Part shown: positions 10,176-11,669 of the stretch, one piece after another | How positions within the stretch are numbered: the first letter of the stretch is position 1 | Layout of the letters: each line of letters begins with the position of its first letter | Assembly: GCA_964510585.1 (NCBI GenBank) | Contig: CAZECW010000039.1 | Location: 1 to 15,140, forward strand | Direction: 5' to 3' | Length of the DNA: 15,140 nucleotides | DNA from: an uncultured archaeon | GTDB lineage: Archaea > Asgardarchaeota > Jordiarchaeia > Jordiarchaeales > Jordiarchaeaceae | The notes under the pieces: model-generated | Seen by the model: the letters and a program-made list of their open reading frames with translations, nothing else | Told to the model about the DNA's origin: nothing | Databases searched by the model: none | Program-made: the position numbers and the translations under genes

Positions 10176-11669
10176 TTATCCTAGGAATCCTCTTAGGGCT
10201 CCGGCTTCGATGATTTTTTCTTCCATTTTTGCGATTTCGTTTTGTTTGAATAGTTTCACGATTTGTGTTGTTAATTTTTTGTGTTCTTGGTTGGTTTCGT
10301 ATTCGAATTCTTTGGCTGTTTCTCGGATTTTTTCTGCCAAGCTGGGGGGCAGAAGTTTGAGGTTTTCTGGGTTCAGGTATTGGAGGGCGGAGGAAATGTG
10401 TTGCTCGAAGCACTTGTAAATTTCGGTGACTGCCTCCTTTTGTTTCTGGCTTAGTGCAGAGAGACCCAAGACCTCTGGGGGAATGCCTAGAGAGTATAGT
10501 GCGGCGCAAAAAGTTATTGCTCTGGGCAGAGTGATTCTTCCTACTCCTCGAGCATATCCAAAGAGACCTATGTGCAGTTTTCTTTTCCTCCTCTGTGGAA
10601 TGTATGGTGCCAACCGATTTATTAGGGGAGCTAGTTCAACTATTTCCTCTTCGTACTCCTTTGACACATCTTCCAATATTTTTTGGTAGTATTCCAAGTC
10701 TAACTCTTGTGGTTTTCCCCTTTTTTTCTCCCTTATTCTTTTTATTGATTCCACAATCTGTTGTTCGGGATAATCATATTTGAAGGCTGACTGGAGGGTG
10801 AAGGTTTGCACGCTGGGATACTCTTCGAGAACCTGACTTTCCGATAGGGGAGTCATTCCCCCTCTGAATGGAGGTGAACCCACACCCAGTATAGGGTAGA
10901 TGTCCACTGAGAGTTCTTCTTCCAACAAACTCAATTTGTAGAGGGCTATTTTGTTCAATAACACCGCCGAGACCAAGCTATAGTTCAAGGCAGGATCGCT
11001 TCTCGCCAGAAAAACCCGCTGATATTCAAACCCTTTATCTTTAAGGTAATCTCTAACTATTTGATCCGCCTTCAACATGCTGACCATATCTTCAACTAGG
11101 GGGATTACGTTTATTTCCTCGGGTTTAAATTCACCAATCCACTCTTTAAGGGGCACATCCCCACTAAAGCAGGGTTTATGCTGTTTGCCTACCACGAACT
11201 CCTTGTAGTAAAAATATACTCTGTTGAGCTGATCGGAGGATTGGGTCATAGGGAGAATGACCTCAAATATGGGTGCCAAGTCCTCACCATAAAAAATTTT
11301 GGAAACATCAAAGGAGCGTGGTATACTATCCAGTGTTTCAATAAGCACCTTTCCCTCCGCCCTTTCAACCGCGGGATTGGGCACACGCAGAGTGAGAAAA
11401 ACATCCTCCCCCAGCCTTTTCTCCCTAAAAAAGTAATCATAATTCGATAAAAGCTTCACCACCACAAAATCGTCCACCTCCTTCCCCTCCGCATCCCACA
11501 TCTGCTCATCACACCCCAAATGCGAAAAAACATAGTAAGCCTCCCTTATCTCATCCTCCCCACCAATCACACTGTGACTAGCAAAAAAGGGAGTCCTCAC
11601 ATTATCCGGATGCTGCGAACTCATACACCGAGGAACCCTAACCCTCACAAAAACCAACTCCACAAACAC
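10176..11669 (-). CDS. ppcA: Phosphoenolpyruvate carboxylase, archaeal type
   Basis: PRCMSSQHPDN, FLARSDPALNY, PILGVGSPPFRG, TLQSAFKY, RKRKLHIGLFGYAR and LPRAITFCAALYSLGIPPE. The true start may be GTG at 11648. Confidence 0.97.
   Translation of the reverse strand: MFVELVFVRVRVPRCMSSQHPDNVRTPFFASHSVIGGEDEIREAYYVFSHLGCDEQMWDAEGKEVDDFVVVKLLSNYDYFFREKRLGEDVFLTLRVPNPAVERAEGKVLIETLDSIPRSFDVSKIFYGEDLAPIFEVILPMTQSSDQLNRVYFYYKEFVVGKQHKPCFSGDVPLKEWIGEFKPEEINVIPLVEDMVSMLKADQIVRDYLKDKGFEYQRVFLARSDPALNYSLVSAVLLNKIALYKLSLLEEELSVDIYPILGVGSPPFRGGMTPLSESQVLEEYPSVQTFTLQSAFKYDYPEQQIVESIKRIREKKRGKPQELDLEYYQKILEDVSKEYEEEIVELAPLINRLAPYIPQRRKRKLHIGLFGYARGVGRITLPRAITFCAALYSLGIPPEVLGLSALSQKQKEAVTEIYKCFEQHISSALQYLNPENLKLLPPSLAEKIRETAKEFEYETNQEHKKLTTQIVKLFKQNEIAKMEEKIIEAGALRGFLG

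Follow-up and report, generated by a model that had tools for sequence, protein, structure and literature searches.

Touchon 2003, Green 2003, and Polak and Arndt 2008 reportedly found an excess of G+T on the sense strand of human genes together with an asymmetry specific to the 5′ ends, and Francino and Ochman are said to have described transcription-associated strand asymmetry in enterobacteria. A gradient that follows the exposure of single-stranded DNA (ssDNA) in vertebrate mitochondrial DNA (mtDNA) is attributed to Faith and Pollock 2003, and positional gradients of codon usage, including the translational ramp, are attributed to Hooper and Berg 2000, Qin 2004 and Tuller 2010. Genetic repeats of intense nucleotide skew (GRINS) are defined as repeats of >500 bp at >80% identity to another copy and are linked to gene conversion among polyketide synthase (PKS) modules (PMC8256042). 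Here, we analysed a stretch of 15,140 nt from an uncultured archaeon of the Asgardarchaeota (class Jordiarchaeia; NCBI GenBank assembly GCA_964510585.1, contig CAZECW010000039.1, positions 1 to 15,140 of the forward strand; hereafter the window), in which the third codon positions of ppcA, the gene for the archaeal-type phosphoenolpyruvate (PEP) carboxylase, switch from nearly pure G/T to nearly pure A/C. We show that ppcA is one strong example among ~1,060 tracts of this kind that are distributed genome-wide.

The ppcA open reading frame (ORF; Table 1) is intact and matches the Pfam family PEPcase_2 (PF14010) with an E-value of 2.8e-192 over residues 12-497 of 497. The match scored 640 bits compared to a cut-off of 25, covered profile positions 1-493 of 493, and the frame contains no stops. 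Based on the alignment with its congeners, the true start is likely a GTG at ~11648. The fraction of third positions occupied by G or T (GT3) was 0.92, 0.86, 0.56, 0.47, 0.58, 0.40, 0.37, 0.36, 0.30 and 0.04 in successive tenths of the gene. A preliminary description of this DNA, which was made from the sequence alone, had counted 18 of 19 codons ending in G or T at 11461-11520 and 19 of 19 ending in A or C at 10261-10320, and both counts were exact when repeated in frame. It had further argued that the composition of the protein does not explain the flip. We shuffled synonymous codons among identical residues 5000 times with the protein kept fixed and obtained a GT3 slope of −0.156 ± 0.070 for the shuffled genes compared to −0.818 for ppcA (z = −9.5), with 0 of 5000 shuffles as steep, which upholds that argument. 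The flip was seen in each codon class alone (two-fold pyrimidine, two-fold purine and four-fold), and the ppcA slope was the fourth strongest negative slope among the 2587 genomic ORFs that reach 150 aa or more. The best change-point fit by the Bayesian information criterion (BIC) consisted of three blocks rather than a smooth gradient, with a GT3 of 0.88 in codons 1-110, 0.43 in codons 111-444 and 0.04 in codons 445-497; in the first 26 codons, GT3 was 1.00.

A survey of these ORFs, covering the whole 3.78-Mb assembly, showed that GT3 falls from 0.545 in the first to 0.393 in the last decile of all genes and from 0.527 to 0.381 when restricted to four-fold sites, so that the absence of a genome-wide trend, which the preliminary description had named as grounds for abandoning its reading, was not what we found. 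The per-gene slope statistic had a standard deviation (SD) of 2.57 compared to an expected value of 1, with 25.6% of the genes below −3 and 3.7% above +3 (maximum +14). Along the plus strand, the keto skew (G+T versus A+C) forms a sawtooth of sharp up-jumps and gradual declines; jumps of at least 0.5 comprised 158 upward and 28 downward changes (p = 3e-23), and up-jumps of at least 0.4 numbered 459 in 3.8 Mb. To delimit individual tracts, we applied a three-state hidden Markov model (HMM) to the sense strand, which called 460 G/T tracts and 599 A/C tracts with a median length of ~70 codons, together covering 11% of all codons. The two types occupy different parts of genes: G/T tracts touched the 5′ end of a gene in 44% of cases and the 3′ end in 10%, and A/C tracts touched the 3′ end in 59% and the 5′ end in 5%.

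The keto fraction at codon positions 1, 2 and 3 was 0.57, 0.54 and 0.82 in G/T tracts and 0.44, 0.44 and 0.13 in A/C tracts, and amino acid usage was altered as well, with V, R, G and F elevated in G/T tracts and K, I, T and Q elevated in A/C tracts. Because the G+C fraction at third positions (GC3) was equal over the three HMM states (0.44, 0.43 and 0.44) while the keto fraction at third positions swings from 0.82 to 0.13, the exchange must have proceeded by transitions on one strand. Strong 5′ G/T tracts occurred in ~7% of the genes and were equally common after divergent and tandem neighbours. Only 22 genes carry both tract types, as ppcA does, and because the strengths of the 5′ and 3′ tracts within the same gene are uncorrelated (rho 0.03), ppcA combines two independent tract types, each in an extreme form. 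Three ribosomal-protein genes that we inspected (L2, L3 and L4 on contig C71) were only moderately A/C-rich, a number from which we draw no inference on expression. Of the sequencing runs listed for positions 9000-12500 of the window, none was an RNA run.

To locate the resets of composition, we measured the jump in plus-strand third-position skew across gene junctions, with transcription units delimited by gene spacing. The jump was 0.00 at operon-internal junctions (tandem genes with a gap of <15 nt) and −0.01 at mid-gene control positions, compared to +0.35 for tandem genes separated by 100-400 nt, +0.46 for all convergent junctions, +0.60 for convergent junctions with a long gap and +0.06 for divergent junctions. 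On the sense strand, the last 60 codons had a third-position keto skew of −0.23 to −0.29 where a transcription unit ends, as opposed to −0.03 where a gene ends inside an operon (Mann-Whitney p = 6.6e-27). The skew was +0.04 to +0.09 in the first 60 codons, −0.06 at mid-gene and −0.02 at operon-internal 5′ ends. Because the units were delimited by spacing and longest-ORF starts were used, the 5′ signal is weakened, and the operon-internal result is a conservative one. Because composition resets at transcription-unit ends and not at operon-internal junctions, the unit of the pattern is the transcription unit and not the cistron. The common component is that the sense strand becomes richer in A/C as the 3′ end is approached.

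This anchoring to transcription-unit boundaries and the sense strand, the C>T and A>G transitions, and the localised 5′ component resemble transcription-associated asymmetry as known from other organisms. The differences are that the sign reverses here toward the 3′ end, that composition approaches saturation instead of deviating by a few per cent, and that the tracts are block-like with a length of ~200 nt, some of them flipping within genes. A G+T excess of the sense strand over the whole transcribed region, which is the classical form, was not found; the sense strand is G/T-rich only in the 5′ tracts.

At the ppcA locus itself, the switch into the 5′ G/T tract lies upstream of the gene, at a refined change point of 11736/11737, and with a jump of 0.73 is the fourth strongest in the genome. 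The plus strand has a GC skew of −0.56 and an AT skew of +0.24 at 11401-11700. At the other end, the plus-strand keto skew is +0.47 at 10201-10350 compared to −0.04 at 10051-10200, and the A/C tract ends within the spacer of 50 nt between ppcA and the convergent gene. This spacer holds an A6T6 palindrome. The preliminary description had suggested a local strand-asymmetric process radiating from intergenic sites. The local process is the part that fits best, given the sawtooth and the switch at 11736/11737, but the sites are transcription-unit ends and not intergenic regions in general.

The sequence is authentic and the pattern is lineage-specific. Contigs from the Logan resource that derive from an independent study were identical to the window over 10415-12455 and, in another contig, over 9231-10198, and a single contig from a third study spans 9002-12500 at ~96% identity. 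The recovery of the same sequence in independent metagenome assemblies shows that the locus is not an assembly chimera, and the possibility raised earlier that the two halves of ppcA trace to different donors or contigs failed: an independent run contains the whole gene on a single contig, and the pattern is retained in five congeners. In run X4, a 599-nt contig matches both sides of an 86-nt stretch (11507-11594, within the G/T tract), and between these matches it is diverged at equal length; it may stem from a locally diverged relative or another organism. In the five other genomes of the genus, the ppcA orthologues are 79-94% identical at the amino acid level and have the same profile and collinear flanks. 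These include the complete Freyarchaeia genome (G005; 3,576,204 bp), in which GT3 of ppcA drops from 0.79 to 0.12. In contrast, orthologues of ppcA in other lineages of archaea and bacteria (n = 76) were flat, with a median slope of −0.04 and a steepest slope of −0.21 compared to −0.79 here. Because these foreign orthologues are flat and all six genomes of this Jordarchaeia/Freyarchaeia genus are graded, the pattern belongs to the lineage and not to ppcA as such. The amino acid sequence has shifted as well: at codon positions 1 and 2, the keto fraction falls from 0.57 to 0.40 along ppcA, compared to 0.51 to 0.48 in the other lineages.

We extended the comparison to other Asgard archaea by using per-gene third-position slopes because whole-sequence metrics (the SD of the keto skew and the correlation of GC and TA skews) are confounded by purine loading. 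The SD of the slope statistic was 2.1-2.6 within the genus compared to 1.0-1.6 in the other Asgard lineages that we sampled (Odin, Baldr, Atabey and others), in which over-dispersion of slopes was weak or absent. The sister family (G006-G010) shows a weak signal. In two loci from another Asgard family (L017 and L018; genomes G023 and G012), ppcA is 43% identical, and its last 200 nt are strongly A/C-rich, with a keto skew of −0.5 to −0.64 and a GT3 of 0.03-0.04 in the last eighth, but there is no G/T-rich 5′ end. The 3′ A/C component may hence be more widespread in Asgard archaea than the genus. Among repair genes, we contrasted the families of NucS/EndoMS (PF01939) and endonuclease V (PF04493). 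Both are present in all six congeneric genomes, but they also occur widely in other Asgard genomes without strong tracts, and neither accounts for the lineage specificity.

The complete genome G005 allowed us to separate the tracts from replication. Sampling 40 stretches of 20 kb (800 kb in total) evenly along its contig C1, we found a replication-type GC3 skew that is positive over 0-1.65 Mb and negative over 1.69-3.5 Mb. The origin would thus lie near coordinate 0 and the terminus close to 1.67 Mb, in agreement with the published cumulative GC skew. Bidirectional replication has been reported for this genome (PMC11291895). In the G000 contigs, the replication-type GC3 skew per contig was weak and unimodal. 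The polarity of the tracts is replicated in G005, with −0.17 to −0.23 at 3′ ends, −0.02 at operon-internal ends and ~0 at 5′ ends. The drop from mid-gene to the 3′ end was −0.125 in co-directional and −0.110 in head-on genes; because these drops are alike, the tracts are additive to, and independent of, the replication skew. As G005 originates from wetland soil, high temperature is not required for their formation.

We also asked in which direction substitutions have gone recently, using 93 kb aligned among four species of the genus (G000, G001, G003 and G004), with singletons polarised by three-way majority and sites zoned by the local skew of neighbouring sites. At third positions, the per-target rate toward keto bases was 0.25 and that toward amino bases 0.14 in G/T zones, these rates were 0.15 and 0.28 in A/C zones, and they were symmetric in neutral zones. 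The bias is thus ongoing and about two-fold in the direction of the tract. The present composition of 0.80-0.83 exceeds the equilibrium expected from the recent rates, which is ~0.65-0.69. Forward rates are up and reverse rates are down to a similar extent. This pattern agrees with a fixation bias, be it through selection or biased conversion, or with an exposure of the polarity type, and less well with a simple added lesion rate. For ppcA alone, the polarised singletons (8 versus 22 and 21 versus 14 changes) are too few.

On balance, we lean towards the view that the tracts result from a DNA-level strand-asymmetric transition bias that is anchored at transcription-unit ends, and not from selection on ppcA. 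The two independent, near-saturated tracts of ppcA, namely, a G/T tract over its first 330 nt plus 70 nt of leader and an A/C tract over its last 160 nt, would be products of this bias. Close to where a transcription unit starts, the sense strand would undergo net changes of C>T and A>G. Toward the 3′ end, it would undergo the mirror changes, G>A and T>C, which are equivalent to C>T and A>G on the template, and the GC content stays constant throughout. The cause may be a bias of mutation, repair synthesis or conversion that is tied to the boundaries of transcription units, for instance through the exposure or the resynthesis of one strand near terminators and promoters.

Several observations weigh against this view. 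Under classical transcription-associated deamination, the sense strand should be G/T-rich over the whole gene, contrary to the 3′ ends described here. Raw substitution counts erode the skew, with 236 changes toward and 556 away from it in G/T zones and 173 and 467 in A/C zones (p < 1e-30). This net erosion was seen in three or all of the four lineages and makes a simple stationary mutation bias fail; artefacts of parsimony act in the same direction, but we estimate that they are too small to account for the imbalance. We tentatively read the net erosion as a sign that the process is intermittent or was formerly stronger. The transcription units were inferred from gene spacing, and no sequence motif was detected at the 459 refined up-jumps, where base composition by position shows the change of composition alone. 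Finally, ~40% of the strongest up-jumps lie within genes, often at conserved motifs, which a pure model of transcription-unit ends does not predict. Sharp flips from A/C to G/T were located at the Walker B (hhhhDEPT) region of three different ABC-type ATPase genes (G000 C173:24493, C196:41608 and C38:25579), and other in-gene flips at Fe-S cysteine motifs (C62:73324, C126:16884 and C20:72800), at the HGAGR motif of RtcB (C58:4805) and at the GGMG loop of PurD (C20:8677). Because the refinement of change points favours motifs that are encoded by G/T, the exact placement of these in-gene flips may be partly an artefact, but the flips at the kilobase scale are not.

Among the alternatives, selection at the RNA level would favour transcripts that are G/U-rich at the 5′ end and A/C-rich and unstructured at the 3′ end, be it for the loading of a termination factor, the control of 3′ to 5′ decay or compositional complementarity between the two ends. 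We regard this as unlikely, although it would account for a pattern that follows transcription units instead of cistrons with a polarity fixed relative to the sense strand, for rate shifts that look like fixation bias, and for the weak folding of the last 150 nt of ppcA (−11.1 kcal/mol compared to ~−42 kcal/mol for other 150-nt segments). The specific pairing of a 5′ G/U-rich with a 3′ A/C-rich segment, which the preliminary description had listed, was not supported: the duplex energy was −60.3 kcal/mol compared to −56.0 ± 5.6 kcal/mol in shuffles of the same composition (z = −0.8; −1.1 for the pairing of the two ends in a second comparison), and the strengths of the two tracts do not covary. 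Near-saturation (GT3 of 0.04 or 1.00) over 50-110 codons together with amino acid replacement would require strong selection per site, the G/T richness begins upstream of the putative TATA box of ppcA, sharp flips within genes include A/C-rich 5′ and G/T-rich 3′ parts (z up to +14), and the net flux erodes the skew. Translational selection, by which a ramp of wobble-decoded codons ending in G or U would precede Watson-Crick-decoded codons ending in A or C, agrees with the fall of GT3 along ORFs in general, and the tracts share with positional codon gradients that synonymous choice varies with the position in the gene. However, such gradients are small and reset at each ORF, whereas the tracts follow the transcription unit, enter non-coding DNA and range from 0.04 to 1.00. 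A ramp would be confined to coding positions and restart with each cistron; we found no reset at operon-internal starts or stops, amino acids change as well, some genes have a reverse slope, and the orthologues elsewhere are flat. This explanation, which had also been listed earlier, therefore seems scarcely tenable. (An ARAGORN parse of the assembly recovered 5 tRNA genes.)

The tracts could also be the same kind of element as the skew repeats of Streptomyces PKS genes, spread via recombination and repair synthesis. These repeats likewise combine intense, correlated GC and TA skews with abrupt switches in coding DNA that are strongest at third positions, and similar amino acid shifts separate residues with G/T-rich codons (G, V and W) from those with A/C-rich codons (T and Q) (PMC8256042). 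The GRINS threshold of mean absolute, correlated GC and TA skews >0.15 is exceeded in ppcA, with plus-strand values of −0.56 (GC) and −0.24 (TA) at 11401-11700 and of +0.28 and +0.41 at 10201-10500. In-gene flips at motifs common to paralogues, such as Walker B in the ABC ATPases and the Fe-S cysteine motifs, would also suit this explanation. By definition, however, ppcA is not a GRINS because it has no repeat in the genome: ppcA is single copy, a blastn search with the gene and 100 nt on either side against the whole assembly returned only the self match and thus no other region of >500 bp at >80% DNA identity, and the nearest paralogue is ~31% identical at the protein level. Moreover, the tracts are anchored with a fixed polarity at transcription-unit ends, an anchoring that is not reported for GRINS, and they account for 11% of the codons of an archaeal genome. 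We consequently consider recoding of this type improbable. Still less probable are numerous origin-like sites of replication initiation, where forks would leave each up-jump bidirectionally, similar to the N-shaped skew domains of mammalian genomes. Sharp up-jumps followed by gradual declines do have the polarity of origins with a G/T-rich leading strand, and the sawtooth, the coupling of G with T versus A with C and a third-position amplitude comparable to that of mtDNA are shared with replication-associated skews of bacteria, archaea, mammalian N-domains and mitochondria. In contrast to one or a few switches with replichore-scale domains, we found hundreds of sites (158 with jumps of at least 0.5) at a spacing of 1-6 kb and without a motif, whose jump size depends on the orientation of the genes at the junction and whose amplitude is far above replichore-scale skew, and these coexist with an ordinary two-replichore GC3 skew in G005, to which the effect of transcription-unit ends is additive and equal on both replichores. 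An artefact, whether a chimera of the assembly or a gene pieced together from two halves of horizontal origin, has nothing in its favour but the abruptness of the change and can for practical purposes be dismissed in view of the identical independent contigs, the ~96% identical contig across the locus and the five congeners with the same profile and collinear flanks.

Building on a DNA-level bias at transcription-unit ends, we tentatively propose that the Jordarchaeia/Freyarchaeia possess an undescribed DNA transaction at transcription-unit boundaries that repeatedly rewrites tracts of ~200 nt to near-pure G/T or A/C on one strand, a proposal that we put forward as a possibility. Such a transaction, for example the exposure or the resynthesis of one strand at terminators and promoters, might be screened by mismatch recognition that overlooks A-C mispairs. 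It would act in bursts because the skews now stand above the equilibrium to which the recent substitutions would lead, would be strong enough to change protein sequences, and could be the archaeal counterpart of the process that makes GRINS in bacteria. In the literature that we searched, we found no description of strand-skew tracts of this kind; the cumulative GC skew is the sole skew reported in the Freyarchaeia genome paper (PMC11291895).

The features of the ppcA locus are compiled in Table 1.

Table 1. Tracts and genes at the ppcA locus (positions in the window)
Feature	Coordinates	Strand	Basis or property
ppcA, archaeal-type phosphoenolpyruvate carboxylase	10176..11669	-	PF14010, orthologues in congeners
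Sense-strand G/T tract, codons 1-110 and ~70 nt of non-coding leader/promoter region	11340..11736	-	Segmentation
ppcA middle, near neutral with a weak slope, GT3 0.55 to 0.36	10338..11339	-	Three- and four-segment fits
Sense-strand A/C tract: codons 445-497, stop codon and first spacer bases	10150..10337	-	Segmentation
A/C-rich 3′ trailer of the upstream tandem gene	11737..11805	-	Keto fraction 0.31 in both 35-nt blocks
Convergent neighbour, 373 aa, 3′ end A/C-rich on its own sense strand	9004..10125	+	Plus-strand keto skew −0.27 to −0.11 at 9601-10050

The upstream tandem gene (11806-12444) encodes a zinc-ribbon protein, and its A/C richness runs 69 nt beyond the stop codon to the switch at 11736/11737. 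Because the convergent neighbour is A/C-rich at the 3′ end of its own sense strand, the spacer that it shares with ppcA forms an up-jump of the strand skew. All three of the closest congeners retain this neighbour in collinear order, and its protein matched no Pfam family at E < 0.001. Two overlapping shadow ORFs lie within the A/C tract of ppcA (10159-10509, minus strand, 116 aa; 10165-10419, plus strand, 84 aa); long spurious ORFs arise in skew tracts because strands nearly without T have few stop codons. Further along the window, the cation-efflux gene at 6696-8255 (plus strand) flips likewise, with a GT3 of 0.70 in its first and 0.26 in its last quarter, and its A/C richness extends ~150 nt beyond the stop codon (keto skew −0.40 at 8251-8400) before turning neutral. 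It is followed by 750 nt (8256-9003) without an ORF of at least 80 aa, a tRNA or an Rfam match, a region that is AT-rich (GC 0.26 at 8701-9000). Across the whole window, no tRNA and no Rfam match was detected.

To our knowledge, a polarity that is fixed to transcription units and has opposite signs at their 5′ and 3′ ends is unlike the known replication- or transcription-associated asymmetries. In 11% of the coding sequence of this Asgard archaeon, codon choice gives way to a local strand bias, which also measurably changes amino acid usage. Analyses of codon usage, dN/dS, phylogeny and horizontal gene transfer (HGT) in such genomes, which are used to study the origin of eukaryotes, will be biased unless the models allow for local, non-stationary strand composition. 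The A/C tracts also yield long spurious ORFs that could mislead gene callers because strands almost without T or G have almost no stop codons. Such organisms are abundant in hot-spring and wetland metagenomes, which makes the process accessible to transcript-end mapping and population genomics, and the tracts provide an evolutionary read-out of where it starts and stops.

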